From positions 130,474 to 194,473 of the IMG/VR virus record IMGVR_UViG_3300022554_000002: DNA of 64,000 nt; one strand, written 5' to 3'. This DNA comes from a virus. The position numbers and the translations under genes were made by a program. The first letter of the stretch is position 1. Each line of letters starts with the position of its first letter. Of the stretch, positions 1-61,029 are shown in pieces. The notes below the pieces were generated by a model that saw nothing but the letters and a program-made list of their open reading frames with translations, made no database searches and was not told the origin of the DNA.

Positions 1-1622
1 AAACGTTTTAACTCATAGATTAAATTTTGATCTTCATAAAAGTCAAATTGACCCACATTAATAAGTGTTTTAAGATATGTATGTTCTTTGTAGCCAACAG
101 ACAATTCTTCAGCAATTATACCCATATTCCAACCATTTACTGTTTGAATTGGCTGTAAACTATTCCATTTATCAAATGTAACTTTTTTAATATTAAATCC
201 TTTACTAGTTTTAAGTAATTTTACAAATTCCAATAATTCACCTATGTTTAATTCTTTGCCCTTTGGTGTTTTAAATCTAACTGCTAAATCCATCACAATA
301 ACATATCCAAAAGTTGGATGTGCTTGTTTATGACACATAGCAAGACCACAACCACAGTGATTAGCCGTTGTACCTTTTGCCAAGTCTATATGAATATGAT
401 ATTCAGCATCACCAATAGCCCTGAACCACGGTGGTAGTTTTGTATAAACATCCATTGGACCTTCCGGTTTGTCTTTACCAGCATCGGGTGCGGGGTCTTG
501 ACGAGAATGATTAATACGAGAAAGTAATAACATATAATCTGGGTAGAATGGTTGACCGGCCACTGAAGGAATAGATTCCACGTCACGTAAAGTCTGAGTT
601 AAGTGATTGTCATATAATGGTTTAAGTTGAATTGGTGGGTGTAATGTAATTTCTTCAATTGTACCGTCTGCTCTTTCGCGTTTTATATTAATATCAAATC
701 GTTCACAATTTTTATATTCAGGTTTACAATCATATAGAGACAATCGTTTAAAATATGTGCTTGGATTTTCTAATGATTCTTCTTCTAATCGTTCTACGTA
801 ATCATCGTCAATGTTAGCGGATGAAATTAATAGAATTAATCCATTATTACCAAATCGTGAAAATTGTCGCTGTCGCATTTCATTAAATAGGTCTTCTGCT
901 GGATCAGACGATTTTTCTTTCCAGTTTGTAGCCTCGTCAATAACGCCAGCAAAAATATTATAGCCTAAAGTGAATGATTGACTAGAATTTCCCGGTAAAA
1001 TCAGTAATTTTGTAAAATCTCGTCTAAATGCTTCGTCCCAAATATTAAATCGTAGTTCTTTTACTGCTTTAGGATCAGGCATTAATTCATGATCACGAAT
1101 GAATTTAACTTCTTTCATAGCTTTAGTAGTATAATCAAATACAACTCGTCTTGCCTGTGTTGTAGTTTGTGCCATCATGATAAATGCGGTTGTTTGTGCA
1201 CTATCATAATTTAATCCTTGAGAGTTTCGTAGGTAAGCACCGAAATCTTTAAAATTTAGATACCAGTACCAAAGATATGCCAATGCCCAACCAGATAAAT
1301 AGGATTTACCAGAACCCTTTGCGGCAACAATAGCGGCAGTTTGATATTTTGGTGCATAGTATTTACCGCTAAAGATTTCTGTTAATACATCTGCTACCCA
1401 AGGATAAACAACCCGTCTTTGGCTATTATTACCAAATTCTGGTGATTCTATAAATTCTCTTGGACTAATCGGTGGACCATATAAAAATAAATCATCACCA
1501 TCAACATGTGTTGGAGATGTACACATTTCAGGAGATAAATTATATTTATTAGCACGATTTTTAATTCGTTCTTTTAATTGACTTAATGATTTTTGTACAT
1601 CTGGTTTTATGTTATCACTCAT
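1..1622 (-). CDS. terL: Terminase large subunit, 3' end truncated by window edge (absent from ORF track)
   Basis: Manual translation from ATG at 1622 (MSDNIKPDVQ...) stays open to the window edge. Walker A AAKGSGKS, Walker B GVIDEA, RNase H-like nuclease motifs HIHIDLA and VTFDKWNS. Confidence 0.9.
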   Translation of the reverse strand, partial: MSDNIKPDVQKSLSQLKERIKNRANKYNLSPEMCTSPTHVDGDDLFLYGPPISPREFIESPEFGNNSQRRVVYPWVADVLTEIFSGKYYAPKYQTAAIVAAKGSGKSYLSGWALAYLWYWYLNFKDFGAYLRNSQGLNYDSAQTTAFIMMAQTTTQARRVVFDYTTKAMKEVKFIRDHELMPDPKAVKELRFNIWDEAFRRDFTKLLILPGNSSQSFTLGYNIFAGVIDEATNWKEKSSDPAEDLFNEMRQRQFSRFGNNGLILLISSANIDDDYVERLEEESLENPSTYFKRLSLYDCKPEYKNCERFDINIKRERADGTIEEITLHPPIQLKPLYDNHLTQTLRDVESIPSVAGQPFYPDYMLLLSRINHSRQDPAPDAGKDKPEGPMDVYTKLPPWFRAIGDAEYHIHIDLAKGTTANHCGCGLAMCHKQAHPTFGYVIVMDLAVRFKTPKGKELNIGELLEFVKLLKTSKGFNIKKVTFDKWNSLQPIQTVNGWNMGIIAEELSVGYKEHTYLKTLINVGQFDFYEDQNLIYELKR

Positions 1623-3378: not shown

Positions 3379-5904
3379 TTATGCGTCCTTTCCTCTTGGG
3401 TCAAACCATCCATACGTCCACATGCAAGCAACCGATTGTTTCGTATTTGCTCGCATTCTCAATTGTGCAGATGTATTTGTTCTAAAAATATTTCCTGCTG
3501 GTCCCTGCGTTACGCCAGTTCCTCCCTCCGTCACTTGCAGCGAATTTTGATTTCCGTTAGCAGGCGCGACATCGGTAACAAGTGGTGATGACGTATACGT
3601 TGATATTGTGTTTAATGCTTTATATCCGTATGTTGTTACTTGCGCTAGAACTTCAACACCTGTGGGGACACTTATTGTGTACAACGTTGCACTGGTGCCT
3701 AATGTTGCCGATGCATTTACGTCGTATACAGGCGTCTTCCACAGGAACAAATCACCATACTGTGTATAGGCGATAATATTTGCACTTCCATTCGTCAATA
3801 CTGCACCAATTCTTCGTTTGAAATCATAGTTTGCTGGCATTGTTGGTGCTGTTGCAGATGTACTGAATAACGCATCAACTACACCCGTATCACTACGCTT
3901 AATTAGCCACACATGGTACCATGTAGCATTGCCAACTGAGCCTGTATCAAGACCACCATTGCCCGAACCTACAGCCCATGACGCATCAATTCTCTTTGTT
4001 ATTGCTGCTGACAAAACTAAATCAGCAGCATTTGTAGAATCCCTACAGGCACCAGCGGCAATATCAATATTATGGTCTGCATCTGTTCCATTATTACTGG
4101 TGATTAATCCGTCAATATATCCACGTGGCAAGCCTGTAGCAGTTGATCCAGTGGTCATAGCCCTACGCATGGTTTCAATACCAGATGCATAATTCTTAGT
4201 ATATGCAATATCGGCGTGGTCATAGGTAATTTCGTGACTATGAACTGCACCATATTGTTCAGCGAAACCTTGCCATGATTGTACGCCGTCTGCTGGATTC
4301 TTATAAACGTAATATGATTGTCCATTGCCAACATTAATGCTGAACCACTGAGTGCCGGAATCTAGTGTATTTGCCGCTGGACGATCTGCATGTAATCCAT
4401 AGAGGATTTTAGAACCTACCCACATTCTACGCATGGTTTCAATACCAGATGCATAGGTAGTTAGTGCTGTAGTATCGCCACCAGTAACCATTGCACGTCT
4501 TAAAGTTTCGATACCTGAAGCATATTCTGTTAACTCTTGTAAATCAACAATAACACCAGATAGTGTATTAGTATTTGATGTTAATTCATTTTGTACAAGA
4601 ATTAATTGACCATTAATACCAGATGCATAGGTTGTTACTGCTGTGGTATCACCACCAGTAACCATTTGCCTACGCATAGATTCAATACCAGAGGCATATG
4701 CTTCTATTGCTGTGGTGTCACCACCAGTAGAGGAACCAGAAACACCATTTAAAACACCACGGTAGCTAACTACGATGCCTTTTGTGTCACTAATGGCAAT
4801 CATTACAGGTTTTGAAATAGTACCGCTTGTAATTGGTTCAGTTGGTGTTAACTCACCTAAGTTATCAGCAGACAGGAAGTACACAATACCGGGAATTAAA
4901 CCGCTTTGATTTTCAATTTCACCCTCAAATACAGCAGTAAATTGATTACCTGATGTAGATTCAATGATAGCAACTGATTCAGCAGTAACAATATTGTCTG
5001 CTTTAGCTTTTGCCCACTGTTCACCAGTGGTTCTATAAATTGCATTTAATGCAGAAAAATCGTGTGTTTGAATATAAGTTTGACGAATGCTTGATCCGGT
5101 AGCCGTAGACGTACCACCAGCAGGTCTTGCACCTATTCCTGAAGCATATTCTGTTAACTCTCTTAAATCAGTAATAATGCCTGATGTTGTATTAGTATTT
5201 GATGTTAATTCATTTTGTACAAGAATTAATTGATTATTGATACCAGATGCATAAGATTCTAACACAGGATTGGAAGAAACCATGACCCGACGCATAGACT
5301 CAATACCGGATGCGTAGGATTCAATTTCTCGTGAATCAATAATTAATCCCGATAATGTATTACTAGCAGCAGTTTGATTTATTTGAATTACATTTAGTAG
5401 CGTTTTTGTTCCAGAAGCATAACCAGTAATATAGTAAATATTTGATTGGTTAACAATTGCTAACGCACCAATACCAGATATATATGGTTCTAGTGCTGGA
5501 TTTGAACCACCACCAGACAAAATCATTGAATCTACATAATGTTTATTAGTTAAATCGGCAGGAATGGTTGGCCAACGATATTGTAACGCTCTTTCAAAGG
5601 ATTTAATACCAGATAAATTCTGGTTTCCTTGAGTTCTAATATATGTAATAATGTCGGCTAAGTGGGCAGATGTTATAACACCAGAAGCAATATTTTCTGG
5701 AACTGTAATAATCTCGCCTAAGTCGGTTCCAGAGGTTAATTTATCTCCGGTAATAGTCCCATTGGCTATTAATTCGTTAGTGATTGCTTCTAAGGAGATG
5801 TGTCTTGTTTGAATATAACCATCTTGTATGTCAGGATTTGGGTAAGCACCTTGTAAGGCACCACCCGCAGCATCACCATATCTAATTGGGTCAGTTAAAG
5901 CCAA
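3379..5904 (-). CDS. Tail fibre protein, 841 aa, TTG start
   Basis: Gly/Ser/Thr-rich; PTIPADLTNKHYVD motif; about ten YASG(I) repeats; C-terminal GYIDGL...IDIAAGACRD...TWYHVWLI...KRRIG module common in phage fibres. Confidence 0.75.
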   Translation of the reverse strand: MALTDPIRYGDAAGGALQGAYPNPDIQDGYIQTRHISLEAITNELIANGTITGDKLTSGTDLGEIITVPENIASGVITSAHLADIITYIRTQGNQNLSGIKSFERALQYRWPTIPADLTNKHYVDSMILSGGGSNPALEPYISGIGALAIVNQSNIYYITGYASGTKTLLNVIQINQTAASNTLSGLIIDSREIESYASGIESMRRVMVSSNPVLESYASGINNQLILVQNELTSNTNTTSGIITDLRELTEYASGIGARPAGGTSTATGSSIRQTYIQTHDFSALNAIYRTTGEQWAKAKADNIVTAESVAIIESTSGNQFTAVFEGEIENQSGLIPGIVYFLSADNLGELTPTEPITSGTISKPVMIAISDTKGIVVSYRGVLNGVSGSSTGGDTTAIEAYASGIESMRRQMVTGGDTTAVTTYASGINGQLILVQNELTSNTNTLSGVIVDLQELTEYASGIETLRRAMVTGGDTTALTTYASGIETMRRMWVGSKILYGLHADRPAANTLDSGTQWFSINVGNGQSYYVYKNPADGVQSWQGFAEQYGAVHSHEITYDHADIAYTKNYASGIETMRRAMTTGSTATGLPRGYIDGLITSNNGTDADHNIDIAAGACRDSTNAADLVLSAAITKRIDASWAVGSGNGGLDTGSVGNATWYHVWLIKRSDTGVVDALFSTSATAPTMPANYDFKRRIGAVLTNGSANIIAYTQYGDLFLWKTPVYDVNASATLGTSATLYTISVPTGVEVLAQVTTYGYKALNTISTYTSSPLVTDVAPANGNQNSLQVTEGGTGVTQGPAGNIFRTNTSAQLRMRANTKQSVACMWTYGWFDPRGKDA
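4514..5253. repeat. Internal duplication in the tail fibre gene (4514-4629 and 5138-5253)
   Basis: Two similar blocks of about 116 bp, 624 bp apart (in frame), sharing cctgaagcatattctgttaactct and tgtattagtatttgatgttaattcattttgtacaagaattaattga. Confidence 0.9.
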
Positions 5905-16262: not shown

Positions 16263-17541
16263 AGTATGACGGTCGTGATTTACTTCTTACTCTCTTCATT
16301 GGTCTTGGTTTTATTACCCAAATTCCTCTGAGAGTCTTTGTTTATCCTCTGCCGTGAATCCTCACGGTGGAGTAAGGCAAAAGCTTTTATGTTTTTCGCT
16401 GCATTAATATCTCGATCATGGAAAGTGTTACATTTAGCACATGTCCATTCTCTGTGTTGTAACTTTAGGTTTTTATTTATTTCTCCACAAACTGAACATA
16501 TTTTGCTACTTGGTTTAAATTGTCCTATAAATAAGAGATTTCTACCATACCATTCTGATTTATAAGTTAGCTGGCGTTTAAACTCATACCAACTAACATT
16601 ACTTATAGCTTTGGCTAATTTATGATTTTTTAACATATCTGTAATATTTAAATCTTCTAAGCAAATTGTTTGGTTCTCACGAATTAGCTTAGTAGACAAT
16701 TTTTGCAAAAAATCATATTTTTGATTCGTAATTTTTTCATAAATTTTTGCTACAATGAGTTTTTGTTTTTCTCTGTTTTTGCTTCCTTTCTGTTTTTTAT
16801 TGAACATTCGTTGATGATGTTTTAGTCTTTTTTCTTGTTTATTAAAATATTTAGGATTTGTAATTTTATCACCATTTGAAGTTACACAAATATCTTTAAG
16901 TCCCAAATCTATACCAATTGTTGTATTGCTTACAATGGGTGGTTTAGTGGGAATTGGTTCACCAGTATCAACTAGTATACAAGCAAAGTATTTATTTGTT
17001 TTTGTTTTTACAATGGTTGTAGTTTTAATCTTACCTGTAAATTGTCTATGAAAAACACATTTAATATTTGGAATTTTCATAATGTGTAATAAACTATTAT
17101 TAAAATCTACTTTTGTATATTGAGGGCATTGAAATGTTTGTTTTTTATTTTTAGATTTAAATACTGGAAATTTTGCTTTGTTATTATTAAAATTTGTGAA
17201 AGCATTATCAAGATTCATAAGAGCCATCATTACTGCTTGACTATTTACTACTTTTAACCAGGGTAATTCCTGTTTTAATTTTGGTAGTTGTTTTTTAATT
17301 TCATAACAAGTGATTTTTTTGTTTTCTGCTTGGGTTTTAAGTCGTTGTTCTAGCCCCCAATTATAAATATATCTACAACACCCAAAATGCTGCCCTAAAA
17401 ATTTCTTTTGTTTTTCTGTAGGATATATTTTATATTTATAAGTTTTTAACATTTAGAGAATCTTTATCCCCTTTCTAAGTATATAATCTAGTTTTTTATA
17501 AAAAATAGAGGGAAATGGTTAATTTAAATAGTATGACGGTC
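16263..17541 (-). mobile_element. Non-autonomous tnpB element (no tnpA) bounded by 12-bp direct repeats
   Basis: AGTATGACGGTC at 16263-16274 and 17530-17541. Right-end-like TCAC on the minus strand at 16278-16275, just after the stop codon. Confidence 0.65.
16280..17452 (-). CDS. tnpB: TnpB RNA-guided endonuclease (IS200/IS605 OrfB)
   Basis: N-terminal YKYKIYPT helix-turn-helix, RuvC-I GIDLG, RuvC-II ICLEDL, Zn finger CSVCG...CAKC, RuvC-III DRDINAAKNI. All three catalytic acidic residues are present. Confidence 0.95.
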   Translation of the reverse strand: MLKTYKYKIYPTEKQKKFLGQHFGCCRYIYNWGLEQRLKTQAENKKITCYEIKKQLPKLKQELPWLKVVNSQAVMMALMNLDNAFTNFNNNKAKFPVFKSKNKKQTFQCPQYTKVDFNNSLLHIMKIPNIKCVFHRQFTGKIKTTTIVKTKTNKYFACILVDTGEPIPTKPPIVSNTTIGIDLGLKDICVTSNGDKITNPKYFNKQEKRLKHHQRMFNKKQKGSKNREKQKLIVAKIYEKITNQKYDFLQKLSTKLIRENQTICLEDLNITDMLKNHKLAKAISNVSWYEFKRQLTYKSEWYGRNLLFIGQFKPSSKICSVCGEINKNLKLQHREWTCAKCNTFHDRDINAAKNIKAFALLHREDSRQRINKDSQRNLGNKTKTNEESKK

Positions 17542-43136: not shown

Positions 43137-44723
43137 TTGAATTCTTGTCTTTATAATGTGAGTAAAGGGAGAATGAAAATGAAGATCAAGAAATTCAGCA
43201 AGCTTCAAGAGAACGGTTTTGATGCGGTTTCTAACTCCGCTGAAAACCTTTTCTTGTCTGCCGTTGCTGGTAGCGGTAAGACGACTTGGCTAGTTGAAGC
43301 TTGCAAGCGTTTGCCCTTGTCCGTCAAGGCTGTTTTTTGTGCCTTCAATAAGCATATTGCGGATGAATTGCGTGGTAAGCTTCCCAAGAATGTTCCTGCC
43401 GCTACGCTGCATAGCCTTGGCTTTGCCACTATTCGCCAGAATCTTGCTAATGCTGTTCATGTTTGTGAGGATAAGACTGACCGAATTTTGGAACAGTTCA
43501 TTAAGGTTGAATCAGAAGAATACAAGTTTAATGCTGCACCTATCAAGAAACTGGTTAGCCTTGCCAAGAATAACTACATGGTGAAACCGGAAAAGGCTGA
43601 CTGGGATAGCCTAATTGAACAGTATGGTGTGATTCTCCCTAACGGTTCTTTCGATTGGACTGCTCTTAATGAGACGTATGCTTTGGCTACTGCAAGGCAG
43701 TATAAGGCAAAGCTTTATAACAAATTCTTTAAGCGTGAAGTAGAATTGCCCGTCATTGATTTCGATGATATGCTTTTCTATCCGGCAATTGAAGGTTGGA
43801 ATATTGCTAAAAATCTCAATTGTCTCTTTGTTGACGAATCACAGGATTTGAATGCGGTTCAGATTAAGCTTTTGGAAACTGCCAATAAGAATGGTACTCG
43901 CATCATTTGCGTAGGTGACTCTGCACAGGCTATCTATGGTTTCAGGGGTGCAAGCATTGAAAGCATTGATAACCTTACTAACCTGTTTAACATGAAGACG
44001 TTGCCGTTGTCGGTTACCTATCGTTGCAGTAAGGCAGTAGTCGAATACGCTAAACGATACGTGCCTGAAATTGAAGCTAGGGAAGGTGCGCCGGAAGGTA
44101 ATGTTTCGGAAATTAGTTTGGCTAATTTAAAGGTTGAAAGCTTCCGGCATGGTGATTTGGTTGTTTGCCGCACTAATGCTCCGCTTGTCGGTTTGGCTTA
44201 TGCTTTGCTCCGTTTGAATAGTGGCATTAAATTCCGCATTCAAGGCGTGGAATTGGGGCAGGAATTGGGCAGACTTGTGGGTTATCTTACCTTCAAGAAT
44301 AACCTGCAAGACGTTGATATGGCTGGATTTATGAAGGCATTGTCCGTCTATGAACAGCATATGACCGAGAAATACATGCAACTTAAGGCTAACGGAGAAA
44401 AATATATTGCGGAATTGCAGGATAAGCTTGAAGTTATTTCCCTTGTCGCTGGTAATTCCAAAACCATTTCGGGAATCAAAATTAACCTGTGCAAGCTTTT
44501 CGCGGATAGTGACGACCGAAATTGTGTTTTGCTGTCGTCTATCCATCGTGCAAAAGGTTTGGAAGTCCTTGCGGAAGATAATACTTGTATCGTTCTTCGG
44601 ACTGACTTGCTGCCACATCCTAAAGCTACACGAGACTGGGAATTGATTCAAGAGTCTAACCTTATCTATGTGGCTTATACCCGCGCCAAGTCTAATCTGG
44701 TTTTGGTGCATAAGGAAAAATAA
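43137..44723 (+). CDS. UvrD/Rep-like superfamily 1 helicase
   Basis: AVAGSGKTT, FVDESQD, VGDSAQAIYGFRGA, LSVTYRC, SSIHRAKGLE, YVAYTRAK. Confidence 0.92.
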   Translation: MNSCLYNVSKGRMKMKIKKFSKLQENGFDAVSNSAENLFLSAVAGSGKTTWLVEACKRLPLSVKAVFCAFNKHIADELRGKLPKNVPAATLHSLGFATIRQNLANAVHVCEDKTDRILEQFIKVESEEYKFNAAPIKKLVSLAKNNYMVKPEKADWDSLIEQYGVILPNGSFDWTALNETYALATARQYKAKLYNKFFKREVELPVIDFDDMLFYPAIEGWNIAKNLNCLFVDESQDLNAVQIKLLETANKNGTRIICVGDSAQAIYGFRGASIESIDNLTNLFNMKTLPLSVTYRCSKAVVEYAKRYVPEIEAREGAPEGNVSEISLANLKVESFRHGDLVVCRTNAPLVGLAYALLRLNSGIKFRIQGVELGQELGRLVGYLTFKNNLQDVDMAGFMKALSVYEQHMTEKYMQLKANGEKYIAELQDKLEVISLVAGNSKTISGIKINLCKLFADSDDRNCVLLSSIHRAKGLEVLAEDNTCIVLRTDLLPHPKATRDWELIQESNLIYVAYTRAKSNLVLVHKEK

Positions 44724-45061
44724 AAAAATATTTTTTTCTTGACTTTTTAATTTTTTGATGTATAATTACAATATAGAAAGTGAGGATTTGAAATGGATGA
44801 AATGATCAGAGAACGAAAATTGCTTCGCCCCTGTTGGAGTTGGGAATTCAGGGGTAAAGCAGATAAGAAAATTAATCGTCGGATTGTGCGACATAGAATG
44901 AAACAAAGAGACAGAAAAAATAACTTGACAGATTGAACTAAAACAGGGGGTCGGAGTTAGAGATTTAATGTGGTAAACAATCCACAGTCTCGAAACGATG
45001 TATCCCCTTATTTTTTAAAAAAAATAAAAAATATTTTTTTCTTTCCCTTAAAATATTTTAG

Positions 45062-45134
45062 GGTCTTTTTCCCCCTCATTTCCCCACTCACGGATACCCT
45101 AACTTCACCCCGTTCGGTACTGCATTAGGTTGTC
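45062..45134 (-). ncRNA. Conserved G-rich element, copy E (divergent 3' end)
   Basis: Minus strand GACAACCTAATGCAGTACCGAACGGGGTGAAGTTAGGGTATCCGTGAGTGGGG after promoter 45176-45148. Confidence 0.55.
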
Positions 45135-45252
45135 TGTCTCTATTTACATTGTACAGGCAAAAGTATCATTTGTCAAGAAAAAATAAAAAATATTTTTTTC
45201 TTGACTTTTTAAATTTTAGCTGTACAATTTTAATATGACAAGTGAATAAGTC

Positions 45253-45422
45253 GGGGGTGTAGCCTAGAGGACAGGCGATACTTGCGTATTATGGCAAGTG
45301 AGTATAATGACTGCGCTAACAGCATTATATAAACTGCGATAATGCAAAAAACAGGTAACTAATAGCTTTAGCGAGTTATTACTATCTGCGTATAGACGCT
45401 GGTTCGATTCCAGCCACCCCCT
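45253..45422 (+). ncRNA. tRNA-like RNA with a roughly 105-nt structured insert replacing the anticodon loop
   Basis: Acceptor GGGGGTG/CACCCCC, D-arm GCCT-AGAGGAC-AGGC, T-arm GCTGG-TTCGATT-CCAGC; own promoter upstream. Confidence 0.8.
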
Positions 45423-45482
45423 GCCTTTTTAAAAATAATTCTTGACAAATACCTATCTTGAGCGTATAATATAGATAGGAGA

Positions 45483-48400
45483 ATGGAAATGATTTTTCAT
45501 AGCTTTAAAGATTTGGTAGTTTTCCTTGAAAAAAAGATGTATGTTGAATATGGTGAAGCTTTTACAATGGCTTGGGAATTAGTAGTAAGTAAGGAAATAC
45601 TTTGGGATAGTGAATCAAAAGGTTACATTTGGCCTAGTAATTTAACAGATGAAATGCTATATGATGTACTGGATATTGGATTAGAGAAAGAAATGTTGCC
45701 TTTCTAAAAGGAAATAAAAAATGTCAAATATCTTAGTTTCTACTACTGCTGAACAACATGGATATGGAAGTGACCCATACAAACATGTATCTCGTCTAAC
45801 AAAAGAAGAACAAGAACATGTGAAAAAGGGTGGAATTGTAATTTTTAAATCCGAGCGAAAGTCTGGTGGGCTTTATCATGGAACGTATTGGCGAGTAGTG
45901 CGCTATCATCGTAAATATGGCTATTTTCCAAGGGTTGCTAGTCCTGAAGATGTAAAAGCTATGGGATTTGAATATTGAGAATATTTCTTGACAAATGACA
46001 ATTAAAGCTGTATAATGTAAATAAGAAAGGTAGGGAAAAAACAATGCCTGCGACTCCAATGGTAGTTCTTCCTACTAAGGCAAGAATTGAAAGATTGCCT
46101 GAAGAAACTCTTGCTATTACATATCCAGCCAAGTTTGGCGAACATTTGAAGATTAGTTTCCTGTTTGAAAATAAGACGCACAAGTTTTTTCGCATGGATT
46201 ATTATAATACGTCAAATGAGAACAGGATTAGCCGTAGCTACTTCGTAGGTATGGATGTTAAGACAGGCATTCCGGTTAGGATGGATTATAATGCAAACGT
46301 CTAAGCGTAAACCTAAGAAGAAGTATAAGATAGGTTCCTATATTGACTATTATGGTATTGTACAGTCAATAGAGTGGGATTCTGATAATAAGGAATGGCT
46401 TTACCATACGCAAAAGTCTTTTTGGGAAGGTAAATATATGATGCAGCTAGAATTCCGAGAACGGTTTGAAAAGAATAGGGAATAATCATAAATTAATTCT
46501 TGACAAATGCTATTATTGCCTGTATACTATAAATAAGAAAGGTAGGATCAAATGGCATCTTACTGCACGATTAGTTTGAATGAAATGGAATCCTTTCTTG
46601 AAACTCGTGGTTTTCACCAAGTGAATGTTGATAAATGCCAAGAATTGGTTTGGGAAAAGGTTTCCAAACAGGATGGAAGGCTTGCATTGCGTGTTTATAG
46701 TTCACTGACTAACGGTGTTTCTCGCGGAGTCGGTGAAGATGCTATCCGTATCGTCATTTGGGATTATTCTATTAGTCGTCCGGTTACAGGTGCAATTCGT
46801 ACTAATCGTGTAGCTGGCTGGCAGGATAGAATGCTTGCCAAGCTTAAGAGTCTGGCATCTTCTTTTAAATTTGCCAAGTGTCCTCATTGTGGGAATTATA
46901 TGATGGAACGGAGTGGGAAGTATGGAACGTTTTTGGGCTGTTCCAATTTTCCCAATTGTAAACACATTGCTGCGAAAGGAATGTAAAAATGGATAAAGCT
47001 AATCTTAAAGACGGAATTGAAATTCCTTTTGTGGTTAAACAAAAATATCCACAGGAAGAACGAACATTGCTGTTTATAATTTTTCAAAGCAATGATGGTA
47101 AAGGTTGCTATTTAGAAGAAGTATTAAAAAATAAAACTGTAAAAATTGCTTCTAATAGTTCTTTTTATAAAATTGCGGGTATTCTTAAAAATATGGGTGC
47201 AGTACCCAAAAATTTTGGGGAATATGTAACTGATTATTTCAAATATAATGATGCTCCAAAGAGTACTCATAGAGATAATTGGTAAGATAATTCTTGACAA
47301 GGTTAATCTTTCTTTGTATAATATAATTAAGAAAGGAATTACAAAGATGATTAACGAAATGGATCTTGTTTCTCGGTTTCCTGATTTTCGGACTCTGATC
47401 AATTCGCTGCCAAAGACTCCGAATTTTAAACCTTACGTAGAGTCTGCCGACACGCAAAACAATCCTCATCAGACTAAGGAATGGGCGCAGGAACGTGTTA
47501 ATCACTGGTGGAATGTTGCAATTTCTAAGTTTGCTCCAAGATTCATTAATCGGCATGATGCACCAAGAGTGCGATTTGATGATAGGATGAATGCCAGAAA
47601 TGGTGGCACTGCACATAGTGGTAAGCATCTTATCACTCTGACTACTCGTTACTTGCAGGAAGATGATTTTGAAAATACCATTGTGCATGAAGTATGCCAT
47701 ATTGTGGCAACTTATCATTTCGGAGCAAATTGTGCTCATAGTGCACGATGGAAAACTGTGATGCTCGCTACTGGCTACATTCCTCATCGTTGCCATACGT
47801 ATAACCTTGCCAAGTCTGCACTTACATGCAAGTGTGGGCATGATAATATTCTGGCAAACGTGGACATTATGAAGAAACTGAAACAGGGTATTACTACTTA
47901 TCGTTGTGAAAAGTGTAAGATGGTGCTTGAACTGCCAAAATCTTATGAATTGCATGGAATTACAAAATAGTTCTTGACAAAGGATAGTAATAGCCTTATA
48001 ATAGAAATAGGAAAGGATTAAACAAATGCCAAAATGTAGAGATTGTGATAATGAGGCAGTACACGTAGATGAATGTTCTGGTTTGGCATTTTGTAAATCT
48101 TGTGAAGAGTCTGATTATCAAGAATGGTTTTGGAACGAACGTGCAAGAGAATATTGGCTGAAATGAATTAAATGTGATGATTGCAGTGGCTATCAAGAGT
48201 GGTGTACTTGTTGTGAAACATACACTAAAATTTGTTGTGTACCATATGGAACTTGTTTGTGTTCATAATGGATGATATTATTAAAAATTATCCTTGACAA
48301 ACCATACTTGAATTAGTATAATACATATAGAAAGGAATTCAAATATGGGATACACAGTTCATGCCTTTGAAAGAATTCAAAAGCGTCTGGTTGAAGCTGG

Positions 48401-49880: not shown

Positions 49881-50173
49881 GCCGGAATGGCGGAACAGGA
49901 AGACGCTACGGACTTTTTAATGGGTCGCTTATAGGGAAACCTATAAGTAAGTAACCTGTCAAATTCGGTAAACGCTGAAATGCCAATACCGAGCTAACTG
50001 CACTAAGTGCAGGAATGTGTAGAGACTAAACGGCAGGAATCTAAACCTAGAGATAGGCATGATTAAGATATAGTCCAGACCACAAACCTAACAGGGTAGC
50101 GAAAGCTATAGTGGTAGGTAAAATCCGTTCTCCCCAAAAGGAGGTGTGGGTTCAAATCCCACTTCCGGCACCA
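49881..50173 (+). tRNA. trnL: tRNA-Leu(UAA) interrupted by a group I intron
   Basis: Exons 49881-49914 and 50119-50173 join to ACGGA-CTTAAAA-TCCGT; acceptor GCCGGAA/TTCCGGC; long variable arm; encoded CCA. Confidence 0.92.
49915..50118 (+). ncRNA. Group I self-splicing intron (IC3-like), 204 nt, no internal ORF
   Basis: P1 GACT/GGTC with U.G at the splice site; P AAATTCGGTAAAC, Q AATACCGAGC, R GTGTAGAGACTAAA, S AAGATATAGTCC; P3 CCTGTC/GGCAGG; GAAA tetraloops; terminal G. Confidence 0.92.
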
Positions 50174-50175
50174 TT

Positions 50176-50550
50176 TTACCAATAATTTTTGGTTAAAAGA
50201 TTACCATGATATTTTCTATGACAATTATTACATAAACAAACACATTTTTCAATTTCTTTTAAAATTTCTTCTTTAGTATGATTTTTGTATTTTGATAATG
50301 AAAATTTTTTCCTTTCAGGATTTTTATGATGAAAGTCTAAACAGGGTAATCTAGACTCACCACAAACTAAACATTTTTGTTTTTGGCTATTTATTGCAGG
50401 TAATTTTTCTTGTTTTTGTTTCTTATAGGATTGTTTATTTCTTTGTTTAGAGTACTCTCTACATGTGCCACAAAGACCATCTTTTTTAGCTATTGATTTA
50501 TTAAATTGATCCAAACTTAAAAATTGTTTACAAACATTACATTGTTTCAT
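50176..50550 (-). CDS. HNH endonuclease
   Basis: CLVCG...LDFHH...CVCLCNNCHRKYH; N-terminal CxxC recombination-endonuclease-like finger. Confidence 0.85.
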   Translation of the reverse strand: MKQCNVCKQFLSLDQFNKSIAKKDGLCGTCREYSKQRNKQSYKKQKQEKLPAINSQKQKCLVCGESRLPCLDFHHKNPERKKFSLSKYKNHTKEEILKEIEKCVCLCNNCHRKYHGNLLTKNYW

Positions 50551-50965
50551 TTAGTTTTATCCATCCTGCCCCAACAAGCCTATGACAGTTACCACATAAA
50601 CAAATACATTTCTCAATTTCTTTTAATAAAATATCTTTTTTACAAGAAGTTCTACTAAAACAAAAATCAAATAATTTTTTAGATGGGTCTTTATGATGAA
50701 AGTCAATACAAATTTTTTCAGACTCTCCGCAAACTACACAAGGTGTTTTCTGATTATTTACAAACTGTTTAAGTTTTTGTCTATATTCTAATTTATATTG
50801 TTTTTGTTTTTCAGAAATTTGTCTTTTTTTCCATTTATGTTTATTCTTTTTATAATAGTTGCGCATATAAATACGCATATAATTGTTATAACAATATTTA
50901 CAGATTGTCGGTTTTTTAAATTCAAAGTCTTCAAAATTTTTTTTACATTTGCTACAAAGTTTCAT
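50537..50965 (-). CDS. HNH endonuclease (paralog)
   Basis: CVVCG...IDFHH...CICLCGNCHR. Confidence 0.85.
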   Translation of the reverse strand: MKLCSKCKKNFEDFEFKKPTICKYCYNNYMRIYMRNYYKKNKHKWKKRQISEKQKQYKLEYRQKLKQFVNNQKTPCVVCGESEKICIDFHHKDPSKKLFDFCFSRTSCKKDILLKEIEKCICLCGNCHRLVGAGWIKLNETM

Positions 50966-51076: not shown

Positions 51077-51231
51077 GGGCAGTCTGATGACGTGAGGAAT
51101 TACGACCACTAGTAGCAAAGTAGCCTAGTACAAAGTTGGCTGAATTTCCTTGGTCGGAACGTTCAGAACTTAACTAGGTGAAAGGCCATACTAGGTAGTT
51201 CTCCATTGAGGGTCTGATTCCCTCATGCCCT
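51077..51231 (+). ncRNA. Degenerate tRNA-like RNA with multi-hairpin insert
   Basis: Begins at the predicted +1 of promoter 51043/51065; GGGCA...TGCCC closing stem; T-arm-like GAGGG-TCTGATT-CCCTC; internal stems ACTAG/CTAGT and AGAACT/AGTTCT. Confidence 0.6.
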
Positions 51232-55123: not shown

Positions 55124-56254
55124 ATGATTTCTGAAACTCCCCTACAGGCATATCTACGCTCTGTCACTAAAGAACATAATGCAGAGTTGGCATTAGAGTT
55201 ACTTACAACAAAGTATGGTATTAATGTTTATAAGCATCCTACTCTGCCTCTGGTTGGGTTTAAATATAATCAAATTGAATCTCCTAAGTATGATCCTATC
55301 GTTCGCTGGTCACGTGGAACTGTGTTGGAATATGAAACATGGAACCTAGTGGCACAGGGAATGAAGCGTTTTTATAATTGGGGCGAGTCTCCAATTGAAA
55401 TGGAAATGTTCAATTGGAACTTCTTTCAAGCTACAGGCAAAGAAGACGGAAGCTTAATACTTCTCTATAATTATAATAATGAATGGCATGTAAACACTTC
55501 TGGTTCATTTGGTTTTGGTACAATTAATGACACAAATATTATTTGGCGTGATTTATTTTGGAAAACATTTGAAAAGCAGGGAATGCGACGAGATATATTG
55601 GTTAAAGGGTTAACCTATATTTTTGAGCTTTGCAGTCCTTATAACAAAGTTGTACGTTTATACACTGAACCTAAACTGTTTCATATTACAACATTTATAG
55701 ATGATAAAGAAATTGGACTGCCATATGGAGAGGCTATTGGTTGTACTCCTGTAACTACTTATGCACTAAATAGTTATGAAGATGTTGTTGCCTTCATTAA
55801 AGAAAAGGAGCACACAGATTCTACTTTTGAAGGATTGGTATTACGAGACAATAATGGTATTCGTTTTAAAGTAAAGACTACCACTTATGTAAATTTGCAC
55901 CATTTGCATGATAATGGTAATATTTACAGTCTAAAGCGATTAGTACCCATTGTGCTTAAAGCTGAACAGGATGAAGTTGCCGCTGTATTTCCTGAATTGC
56001 AGGATAAGTTTCAGGTTATTAAGGGACAGTTGGATGGTATTTATAATAACCTGCGAGACTTGTGGGCATTCACTAAAGATATTGAAAACCAGAAAGACTT
56101 TGCGCTTGCCATTGCTGCGCATCCTATGAAAGGCTTGCTGTTTATGGTTCGCAAGGTGCATGGTAAGAATCAGACAGAGACACACCTAAAGAATCTTTGG
56201 TGTGATTCTGCTGATTTGATTTTGAAATATTATGAGAATGTTCTTGACAAATAG
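55124..56254 (+). CDS. RNA ligase, T4 Rnl1-like
   Basis: FKY...RG, MKRFYN, motif I KEDGS, FELCSPYN, FEGLV, FKVK..YV.LH. Confidence 0.88.
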   Translation: MISETPLQAYLRSVTKEHNAELALELLTTKYGINVYKHPTLPLVGFKYNQIESPKYDPIVRWSRGTVLEYETWNLVAQGMKRFYNWGESPIEMEMFNWNFFQATGKEDGSLILLYNYNNEWHVNTSGSFGFGTINDTNIIWRDLFWKTFEKQGMRRDILVKGLTYIFELCSPYNKVVRLYTEPKLFHITTFIDDKEIGLPYGEAIGCTPVTTYALNSYEDVVAFIKEKEHTDSTFEGLVLRDNNGIRFKVKTTTYVNLHHLHDNGNIYSLKRLVPIVLKAEQDEVAAVFPELQDKFQVIKGQLDGIYNNLRDLWAFTKDIENQKDFALAIAAHPMKGLLFMVRKVHGKNQTETHLKNLWCDSADLILKYYENVLDK

Positions 56255-58803: not shown

Positions 58804-58920
58804 GGGGCGGCTGACAGGCATACAAGAGATGCCACCTTTGTCAAAAGGAGAGCCAAGCACATTTGATCAGTGTGCTTCCCGTTTGGGATACTGTTGGTGC
58901 AAATCCAACCTTCCCCACCA
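58804..58920 (+). ncRNA. tRNA-like RNA with extra arms and encoded CCA, no canonical anticodon arm
   Basis: GGGGCGG/CTTCCCC-A-CCA; T-arm GTTGG-TGCAAAT-CCAAC; four internal hairpins. Confidence 0.65.
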
Positions 58921-59877: not shown

Positions 59878-61029
59878 ATGGAACGCCAATTAGCAACAAT
59901 TCAAAGAATTCTTGAAGTCAAGAATCATCCTAATGCTGACAAACTGGACCTTATCAAAGTTATGGGTTGGCAGTTAGTATCTAAACGGGATGAATTTAAA
60001 ATTGGTGATTTGTGTGTTTTTGCAGAAATTGATTCTGTACTTCCTATCACGAATCCTAATTTTGCATTTCTTGAGAAGTCCAAAGGTCGAATTAAGACTA
60101 TTCGACTAAGAGGGGAATTGTCTCAAGGTATCGCATTTCCTGTAAGCATTTTATCTACACAAGTTGAAGAAGGAACAGATGTTACAGAATTGTTAGGTAT
60201 TACAAAATATGAACCTCCTGAACCGTCGCATAAAGGACAGAATTTTGGTAGCTTTGGTAAGTCACGTGGTAATTTTCCATCATTCATTCGTAAGACAGAT
60301 GAAATTCGATTGCAAAGTTGCCTTGGTGTATTGGATGAAATTGATGGTAAAGAATGTTATGTTACCATGAAACTTGATGGTTCAAGTTGTACTATCTATT
60401 CTAAAACTGATATTTCTGGCACGAGACGCCTTGGTGTTTGTTCCAGAAATATGGAAATGGATTTCAATTACGAAAATCCTAGTGGTCGGTTTTGTGAAAC
60501 TGTGCACAAATTTAAAATTGGAGAAAAATTAACTCAATATTGTGAAGAGAACAATGTTGATATTGCTGTTCAAGGTGAATTGGTTAGTGAAGGTATACAG
60601 GCTAACCGACTAGGTATGACAGGCTCAGATATTAGAATTTTTAATGGTTACAATATAAAGGAAGGCAGATACCTACACTGTGCAGAAATGCTTGATTTGG
60701 TTAAGCAGTTAGGTATTCTTACTGTACCCATTTTACAGATTGAGGGAAGCTATAAAAAGGTAATTCCTATATATACTCATAAATGGTTAAACAATGTTGA
60801 ATTTTATGTTTTCAAGTATGACAAGAATATTCATACTCTGGATTACTGGCTTAACTTTGCTGATAACCAGAAGTATAATTTTAATACCGTTGGCAGTAGA
60901 GAGGACTATGAGCATACGGCTGAAGGTGTTGTTATTCGCCCAATTGAAGAGTGTTACTCGCAAAGGCTTAAAGGTCGAATGTCCTTTAAGGTAATTAGTA
61001 ACAAGTATCTTTTGGAAATTGGAGAATAA
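59878..61029 (+). CDS. RNA ligase, DRB0094/Rnl2-like
   Basis: HPNADKL, IRLRGELSQG, TDEIR, motif I KLDGSS, QGELV, EGVV, FKVISNKYLL. Confidence 0.9.
   Translation: MERQLATIQRILEVKNHPNADKLDLIKVMGWQLVSKRDEFKIGDLCVFAEIDSVLPITNPNFAFLEKSKGRIKTIRLRGELSQGIAFPVSILSTQVEEGTDVTELLGITKYEPPEPSHKGQNFGSFGKSRGNFPSFIRKTDEIRLQSCLGVLDEIDGKECYVTMKLDGSSCTIYSKTDISGTRRLGVCSRNMEMDFNYENPSGRFCETVHKFKIGEKLTQYCEENNVDIAVQGELVSEGIQANRLGMTGSDIRIFNGYNIKEGRYLHCAEMLDLVKQLGILTVPILQIEGSYKKVIPIYTHKWLNNVEFYVFKYDKNIHTLDYWLNFADNQKYNFNTVGSREDYEHTAEGVVIRPIEECYSQRLKGRMSFKVISNKYLLEIGE

Follow-up and report, generated by a model that had tools for sequence, protein, structure and literature searches.

Positions 45253-45422 of the window (the 64,000-nt stretch of DNA analyzed here) probably, though by no means certainly, encode an independently transcribed, non-decoding RNA of 170 nt that uses a tRNA scaffold to carry a folded insert. 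The insert would be the working part of the molecule, perhaps as a decoy or a protein binder, a role that is entirely conjectural. The window represents the final 64 kb of a 194,473-bp IMG/VR contig with direct terminal repeats, which belongs to an uncultured phage and comes from a sediment metagenome assembly. The RNA gene sits in a 760-nt stretch without genes, flanked upstream by a UvrD-type helicase gene and downstream by a row of small open reading frames (ORFs) of unassigned function, and no ORF of 40 or more codons overlaps it. Genes for tRNA-Lys(UUU) (3.4 kb away), tRNA-Leu(UAA) (4.5 kb away), and tRNA-Ile(UAU), as well as two RNA ligases, are found within 16 kb downstream. In a search of sequencing runs, contigs covering the RNA region came from the source sediment sample and from a hot-spring run, the latter with identical 151-letter contigs at a depth of 2; these added no sequence variant, and no RNA sequencing run containing this stretch was found. 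One run-contig joint that skips positions 45189 to 45803 was not trusted because its 21-letter side lies inside an A/T-only motif. Coordinates of the principal features are listed in the table; positions within the RNA are numbered so that RNA position i corresponds to window position 45252+i.

Table. Features of the RNA locus and its surroundings (window coordinates unless a relative is named)
Feature	Coordinates	Strand	Basis or remark
UvrD-type helicase gene	43137-44723		Upstream of the 170-nt RNA
A/T-only palindromic motif AAAATAAAAAATATTTTTTTCTT	45180-45202	+	Runs into the promoter
Copies of AAAATAAAAAATATTTTTTTCTT in the window	44718-44740, 45021-45043, 45180-45202	+	
Copies of AAAATAAAAAATATTTTTTTCTT in relatives	L002:~1645-1670, ~1835-1860; L057:~150-172, ~421-443		
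Sigma-70-type promoter TTGACT-16-TACAAT	45201-45228	+	Predicted; promoter scan, 10/12 matches
170-nt tRNA-shaped RNA gene	45253-45422	+	ARAGORN -i; weak Rfam tmRNA match with the same ends; fold z score
D arm GCCU-AGAGGAC-AGGC	45262-45276	+	GG for the tRNA elbow; pairing probability 0.88-0.92
AUAC, 5' strand of connecting stem	45278-45281	+	Partner GUAU at 45390-45393; read from sequence
Insert of 108 nt in place of the anticodon arm	45282-45389	+	Fold z score, helix probabilities
Domain 1 loop CGCUAA	45314-45319	+	Complements UUAGCG at 45367-45372, domain 2 tip
Frame GCG AUA AUG CAA AAA ACA GGU AAC UAA UAG	45336-45365	+	Stops in domain 2 stem
4-nt variable loop AGAC and T arm GCUGG-UUCGAUU-CCAGC	45394-45414	+	Pairing probability 0.95-0.98
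tRNA-Leu(UAA) interrupted in the anticodon loop by a group I intron	49881-50173	+	Rfam, ARAGORN -i
Structured RNA, acceptor-like stem beside T-arm-like hairpin	51077-51231	+	Fold z score -3.9
RNA ligase, T4 Rnl1-type (PF09511)	55124-56254	+	
Structured RNA, acceptor-like stem beside T-arm-like hairpin	58804-58920	+	CCA-ended
RNA ligase, PHA02142 OB-fold plus RNA_ligase (PF09414)	59878-61029	+	

With introns allowed (option -i), ARAGORN called the gene at exactly these ends, as a 69-nt tRNA with a 101-nt “intron.” When the 194-kb genome was dinucleotide-shuffled 10 times (1.9 Mb in total), the same setting gave no calls, so the tRNA shell is not a product of chance. Neither default ARAGORN nor an Rfam scan at the gathering threshold called the interval, and RF00005 gave no match in either cmscan run, where a weaker match of the same clan would stay hidden under the tmRNA match. 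The RNA as a whole folds at -62.5 kcal/mol (z score, -5.3). Its acceptor consists of seven perfect pairs between GGGGGUG at positions 1 to 7 and CACCCCC at positions 163 to 169 (window 45253-45259/45415-45421), its D stem comprises four pairs (10-13/21-24) closing the loop AGAGGAC, and its T arm occupies positions 146 to 162; pairing probabilities of these shell helices range from 0.88 to 1.0. The conserved nucleotides of the tRNA elbow (U8, A14, G18 G19, G53 U54 U55 C56, and C61) are all present. The D-arm 17-mer is also found in ordinary phage tRNA genes from IMG/VR, and the T arm is identical to those of ordinary phage tRNA-Gln, tRNA-Pro, tRNA-Met, and tRNA-Asn genes. At the 3' end, the discriminator U170 (position 45422; U73 in tRNA numbering) is followed by GCC. 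Thus, the acceptor, D, and T arms that the preliminary description had reported as perfect were found just where it placed them, with the ends also given by ARAGORN; the G3-C70 pair, the U discriminator, and the lack of an encoded CCA were likewise verified in the sequence, and the insert, put there at roughly 105 nt, measures 108 nt.

The shell is similar to class I tRNAs of the Gly/Cys type, with U73 and no CCA, and carries the anticodon of neither. Its 3' half matches phage tRNA-Gly genes, U73 included, and the tRNA-Gly of Synechococcus phage S-CAM9 has a similar D loop of 7 nt (AGAGGNA) and a similar variable loop of 4 nt (AGNC). However, the pair at position 2-71 is G-C, as opposed to the C2-G71 of bacterial tRNA-Gly; a Gly anticodon is absent, and the Cys triplet GCA is not presented in an anticodon loop, such a loop being absent from the RNA altogether. 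Given that CCA is encoded in the remaining tRNA genes of the phage but not in that of the 170-nt RNA, the 3' maturation of the latter is uncertain; a gene for a CCA-adding enzyme was not found in the phage.

On its own, the insert folds at -35.5 kcal/mol (z score, -4.45), and none of 200 shuffles folded as well; its helices have probabilities of 0.7 to 1.0. Where the anticodon stem of a tRNA would begin, AUAC (positions 26 to 29) faces GUAU (positions 138 to 141) in a stem of 4 bp, which is marginal in the nearest-neighbor model (probability 0.11) and costs 0.9 kcal/mol when forced (-61.6 versus -62.5 kcal/mol). In the modeled fold, this stem can close a three-way junction with two hairpin domains. 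Domain 1 is a long hairpin (45286-45345; RNA positions 34 to 93) with a robust apical hairpin at 45303-45329, whose helix 51-57/71-77 (UAUAAUG/CAUUAUA) plus CUG/CAG is predicted to be essentially certain, and with a basal helix 34-40/87-93 of probability 0.7 to 0.99. An A-rich linker (AAAAAA, 45346-45351) leads to domain 2, a hairpin at 45352-45388 (positions 100 to 136) that includes UAAUAGCU/AGUUAUUA at 108-115/122-129 with one G.U pair. All the letters of the stem and hairpins listed in the preliminary description are in place, but one of those hairpins, ACUUGC/GCAAGU (28-33/42-47), has a pairing probability of just 0.01 and is a minor alternative, its bases preferring the basal helix of domain 1. 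The loops of the two domains contain exactly complementary sequences, CGCUAA and UUAGCG; a loop-loop complement of at least 6 nt appeared in 23 of 1,000 shuffles (2.3%). As an ordinary nested helix, this pairing was rejected, since it would bring the fold to -43.4 instead of -62.5 kcal/mol. Being rare in shuffles and not viable as a nested helix, it is treated as a possible kissing contact, for which the sequence complementarity is no more than suggestive.

The RNA gene is preceded by a near-consensus promoter on the matching strand, which was counted in favor of its being an independent gene; transcription is predicted to start at approximately position 45235, leaving a leader of about 17 nt ahead of the mature 5' end. 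According to the alignment, this promoter block is conserved in the related phage sequence L057. The palindrome AAAATAAAAAATATTTTTTTCTT that runs into it has three matches in the window, all within 500 nt, against an expectation of 0.01. Two of these three copies enter a TTGAC promoter, the exception being the copy at 45021, and the motif appears to mark the boundaries of small non-coding transcription units. Two further small promoter-driven non-coding units are found in the interval that separates the helicase gene from the RNA, at 44770-45010 on the plus strand and at about 45060-45147 on the minus strand. One of them is a copy of a G-rich element of ∼70 nt, which the preliminary description had counted as a five-copy family and which has copies in the relatives L002 and L057, too.

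A tRNA-like domain that encloses an internal stretch, in which a short frame has its tandem stops inside a stem, is the layout of tmRNA, and the RNA had initially been suggested to represent a miniature ribosome-rescue or tagging RNA of this kind that resumes translation on GCG and adds the tag AIMQKTGN. This interpretation did not hold up and is now considered extremely improbable. It is true that tmRNA (RF00023) is the only Rfam family with a weak end-to-end match to the RNA (11.7 bits; E value, 0.015), that both RNAs consist of a tRNA-like acceptor/T part built around a larger internal domain, and that reduced tmRNAs lacking a tag frame exist in phage DS6A and in organelles (PMC11915505). 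However, the match falls far short of the gathering score of 47, and of the ARAGORN and Infernal checks proposed in the preliminary description, the former recovered the shell solely with introns allowed and was negative in its tmRNA search, while the latter returned just this sub-threshold hit. The G3.U70 pair and A73 of tmRNA are replaced here by G3-C70 and U73, so that the alanyl-tRNA synthetase identity is absent. Whereas tmRNA lacks a D stem, the RNA has a full one of 4 bp with a probability of about 0.9; it is 170 nt long as opposed to about 350 nt; and instead of the long P2 helix and the pseudoknots PK1 to PK4 of tmRNA, it is predicted to form two plain hairpins on a connecting stem of only 4 bp, with no tmRNA-type pseudoknot. 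The frame itself is there, and its stops do lie in a stem, but a coding role for it is unsupported: the proposed resume codon and the codons that follow (GCG AUA AUG C) form part of the basal helix of domain 1, which dominates the predicted fold, and no homologues of the mini-ORF were found that would show conservation of the frame. No Shine-Dalgarno sequence precedes the frame. Degradation tags typically end in hydrophobic residues, and AIMQKTGN does not. A gene for SmpB was not found in the phage, although the SmpB of the host could serve.

The ARAGORN model can also be taken literally, as a tRNA(GCU) of 69 nt from which an insert of ∼101 nt is removed to leave a decoding tRNA, the excision being either autocatalytic or the work of a nuclease together with the RNA ligases of the phage. 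The same phage provides a genuine precedent in its tRNA-Leu(UAA), which is likewise interrupted in the anticodon region and called by ARAGORN -i, and in which Rfam recognizes a compact group I intron of 204 nt (Intron_gpI, 61.5 bits); the two RNA ligase genes lie 10 to 15 kb from the RNA, and repeats mark the borders of the insert. Nevertheless, splicing of the 170-nt RNA appears quite improbable. While removal of the intron from tRNA-Leu(UAA) gives a canonical class II tRNA of 89 nt with an encoded CCA, the 108-nt insert lacks the signature of an intron, and its removal does not restore a canonical anticodon arm: in an enumeration of splice points, no excision produced one (5-bp stem, 7-nt loop, U33, and purine 37). 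In canonical numbering, every choice of splice points results in G33, or in the anticodon AUC with U37, plus a U31.C39 mismatch, as can be reasoned from the sequence. The product modeled by ARAGORN would have an anticodon stem of only 4 bp, in which the program counts G26.A44 as a pair, and a variable loop of 3 nt; it would also combine a Ser anticodon with a class I, U73 shell, which by established identity rules bacterial seryl-tRNA synthetase should not accept. No group I or group II intron or self-cleaving ribozyme from Rfam matched the RNA at E values up to 10, and the smallest group I introns known to us are about twice as long as 101 nt. The protein-spliced intron mentioned in the preliminary description fares no better, as a bulge-helix-bulge motif cannot be drawn from the sequence and genes for the splicing endonuclease EndA and for RtcB were not found in the phage. 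Two ORFs on the opposite strand (50176-50965), taken for HNH genes in that description, are located directly 3' of tRNA-Leu(UAA).

Comparison with related phages shows which parts of the locus are kept and which are replaced. The RNA is found in none of the four sequences with homologues of the helicase (L002 to L005; 59 to 80% identity), and a helicase-based search for related loci in IMG/VR gave no relatives. In L002, whose helicase is 80% identical, the corresponding slot carries a protein gene and the G-rich element. The second relative, L057, was reached through a homologue of a 74-aa ORF (its own ORF is of 72 aa and 69% identical) and retains the A/T palindrome and promoter on the upstream side, as well as a promoter and gene start on the downstream side; the A/T motif is found upstream of the slot in L002 and L057 alike. 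The slot of L057 (476-640, plus strand) is occupied by an unrelated RNA of ∼140 nt, which is closed by UCAAGAUA.../...UAUCUUGA, has a fold z score of -2.0 and no Rfam match, and is not tRNA-shaped. The similarity between this slot and the 170-nt RNA is not significant, since 24 of 300 shuffles scored as well. With the flanking promoters kept and the cargo differing among relatives, the locus appears, as judged from these sequences, to behave as a promoter-flanked slot with exchangeable cargo, which fits an accessory function. A tentative suggestion, with the balance still against it, is that this phage lineage has, in an early or accessory region, a swappable slot for non-coding RNAs that is defined by promoters and currently carries the 170-nt RNA, and that the tRNA shell is a natural scaffold with which phages deliver different folded domains to bind or disarm host proteins such as tRNA-directed defense nucleases.

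The absence of the RNA from its two closest relatives would, however, also fit a recent and possibly non-functional acquisition. The main rival to the scaffold interpretation is a young or neutral relic, that is, a Gly/Cys-like tRNA gene that was disrupted by a rearrangement or insertion and is still transcribed without having any role; this is regarded as unlikely, though less so than the tagging and splicing alternatives. The RNA is indeed an orphan. Searches of 50,697 phage records of INPHARED by blastn, with a 401-nt segment and the 170-nt RNA as queries, returned only chance matches and short matches to the 3' halves of tRNA-Gly and tRNA-Ile genes. Among patterns run against IMG/VR, the shell plus gap had no matches, the D-arm 17-mer matched 12 ordinary tRNAs, the T arm plus acceptor had 11 matches, none of them related to the RNA in the insert, and the two loops with a gap had 24 chance matches in coding DNA. 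A single pattern searched over JGI metagenomes gave one false positive, in a tRNA array; two patterns had no matches in GTDB genomes, and the phage itself contains no paralogue. Besides this lack of homologues and the absence from the syntenic slot of both relatives, the relic would be in keeping with the presence in the phage of further off-consensus tRNA-like genes, such as one called “tRNA-???” by ARAGORN, and with the 7-nt direct repeat UGCGUAU (positions 31 to 37 and 135 to 141) that flanks the insert. The repeat, which the preliminary description had pointed out at the insert ends, is real but carries less weight than was implied, as simple arithmetic gives ∼0.8 such repeats by chance in 170 nt. 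Nor does it look like a tidy target-site duplication, because excision of the insert with one repeat copy leaves a 4-nt loop and no tRNA. Finally, a decaying gene would not be expected to have all 16 shell base pairs intact along with consensus D and T loops. The much stronger folding of the insert relative to its shuffles was also counted against a relic.

Under the preferred interpretation, that of a non-decoding scaffold RNA, the acceptor, D, and T arms would fold into a normal tRNA elbow, which should allow RNase P to cut off the leader of ∼17 nt. RNase Z or exonucleases would trim the transcript after U73, the CCA enzyme of the host may then add CCA, and the tRNA shell would make the RNA stable. 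In place of the anticodon arm, the 4-bp stem would lead into the three-way junction with its two hairpin domains, the loops of which may kiss. Because an anticodon loop is missing, as are G3.U70, a long variable arm, A73, and C2-G71, charging is unlikely under the established identity rules, and the RNA is presumably neither charged nor used on the ribosome. Protein binding would be its likely role: the RNA might act as a decoy and attract host factors that recognize the tRNA shape, e.g., a tRNA-targeting defense nuclease, or it might serve as a carrier on which the insert is presented. A decoy for a synthetase or nuclease had already been put forward in the preliminary description, and it is compatible with everything seen here, the function itself being conjectural. 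Differences in slot cargo between related phages are what might be expected of accessory cargo.

The closest published analogue of this RNA is, by its architecture, the species 1 RNA (rnaC) of phage T4 (139 nt; NC_000866, 70908-71046), which adjoins rnaD, the species 2 RNA. It is a stable RNA of the T4 tRNA cluster with no assigned role. Like the 170-nt RNA, rnaC is a small non-coding RNA gene of a large lytic-type phage, located among or near tRNA genes, and lacks an anticodon loop; in both RNAs, an acceptor-like stem with a consensus T arm beside it encloses two stable hairpins. The two RNAs have no sequence similarity, however, and while every arm of the shell is perfect here, the acceptor-like stem of rnaC is imperfect (with two U.U mismatches in our own reading) and its D arm is unclear; rnaC is also cotranscribed in a tRNA operon, whereas the RNA described here has its own predicted promoter. 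The features of the rnaC/rnaD type that are found here (phage-encoded, non-coding, near tRNA genes, a T arm with a closing stem, and no anticodon) define a loose class rather than a curated family. To our knowledge, anticodon-less tRNA-shaped phage RNAs have been around since the T4 species 1 and 2 RNAs, and none has an assigned function; Rfam 15 has no curated family for them, and the literature search retrieved no paper that describes or explains such a class of tRNA-scaffold phage RNAs.

The phage encodes at least two further structured RNAs in which an acceptor-like stem stands beside a T-arm-like hairpin, both without sequence likeness to the 170-nt RNA. The one at 51077-51231 starts directly after a TTGACA-17-TATAAT promoter, and the one at 58804-58920 is located 7 nt ahead of tRNA-Ile(UAU).

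Two other systems share part of this organization. YrlA, reportedly described by Chen et al. in 2014 as a Y RNA of bacteria and phages that contains a tRNA-like domain, is a non-decoding RNA that mimics the tRNA elbow and is found in phages. In YrlA (RF02553), however, the two termini make up the Ro60-binding stem and enclose the tRNA-like portion, whereas the ends of the 170-nt RNA form the acceptor stem. Identity as a Y RNA was rejected on the grounds of this topology, the lack of an RF02553 match, and the lack of a Ro60/TROVE gene in the phage. The engineered “tRNA scaffold” that Ponchon and Dardel are said to have introduced in 2007 for recombinant RNA is similar in that a cargo RNA replaces the anticodon arm and the tRNA shell provides processing and nuclease resistance; unlike the RNA of this phage, it is a laboratory construct and not a natural molecule.

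The locus is unusually clean, in that the tRNA shell is perfect, the gene has a consensus promoter to itself, and the cargo of 108 nt is strongly folded; by itself, it constitutes a well-documented instance and not a breakthrough. Should the slot prove to be swappable as suggested, it would represent an RNA counterpart of the protein anti-defense gene cassettes. If RNAs of this type turn out to target host tRNA-binding factors as decoys or carriers, phage counter-defense would gain an RNA layer, and a question in T4 biology that has lingered for a long time would be answered as well.

Several other genes were noted in passing. The phage genome includes a TnpB/OrfB_IS605 gene with a Cas12f-like TNB domain (window positions 16280-17452, minus strand). 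The gene called “tRNA-???” lies outside the window, at C1:13101-13174 (plus strand), and received a two-base anticodon call. In IMG/VR, 5 of the 11 matches to the T arm GCUGGUUCGAUUCCAGC (L019, L024, L021, L027, and L018) are tRNA-like genes that have long inserts or are missing their 5' halves. One of these, L019, combines a GGGGGCG acceptor with the same T arm and was considered as a homologue of the 170-nt RNA, but was rejected because many types of phage tRNA share this T arm and the insert of L019 is unrelated. The L019 gene (12302-12428, plus strand) is 127 nt long, and all 7 bp of its acceptor are perfect. With ARAGORN -i, a gene of 157 nt with a 63-nt insert is called in L024 around positions 4678 to 4700 on the minus strand, and an insert of 325 nt is called in L018.
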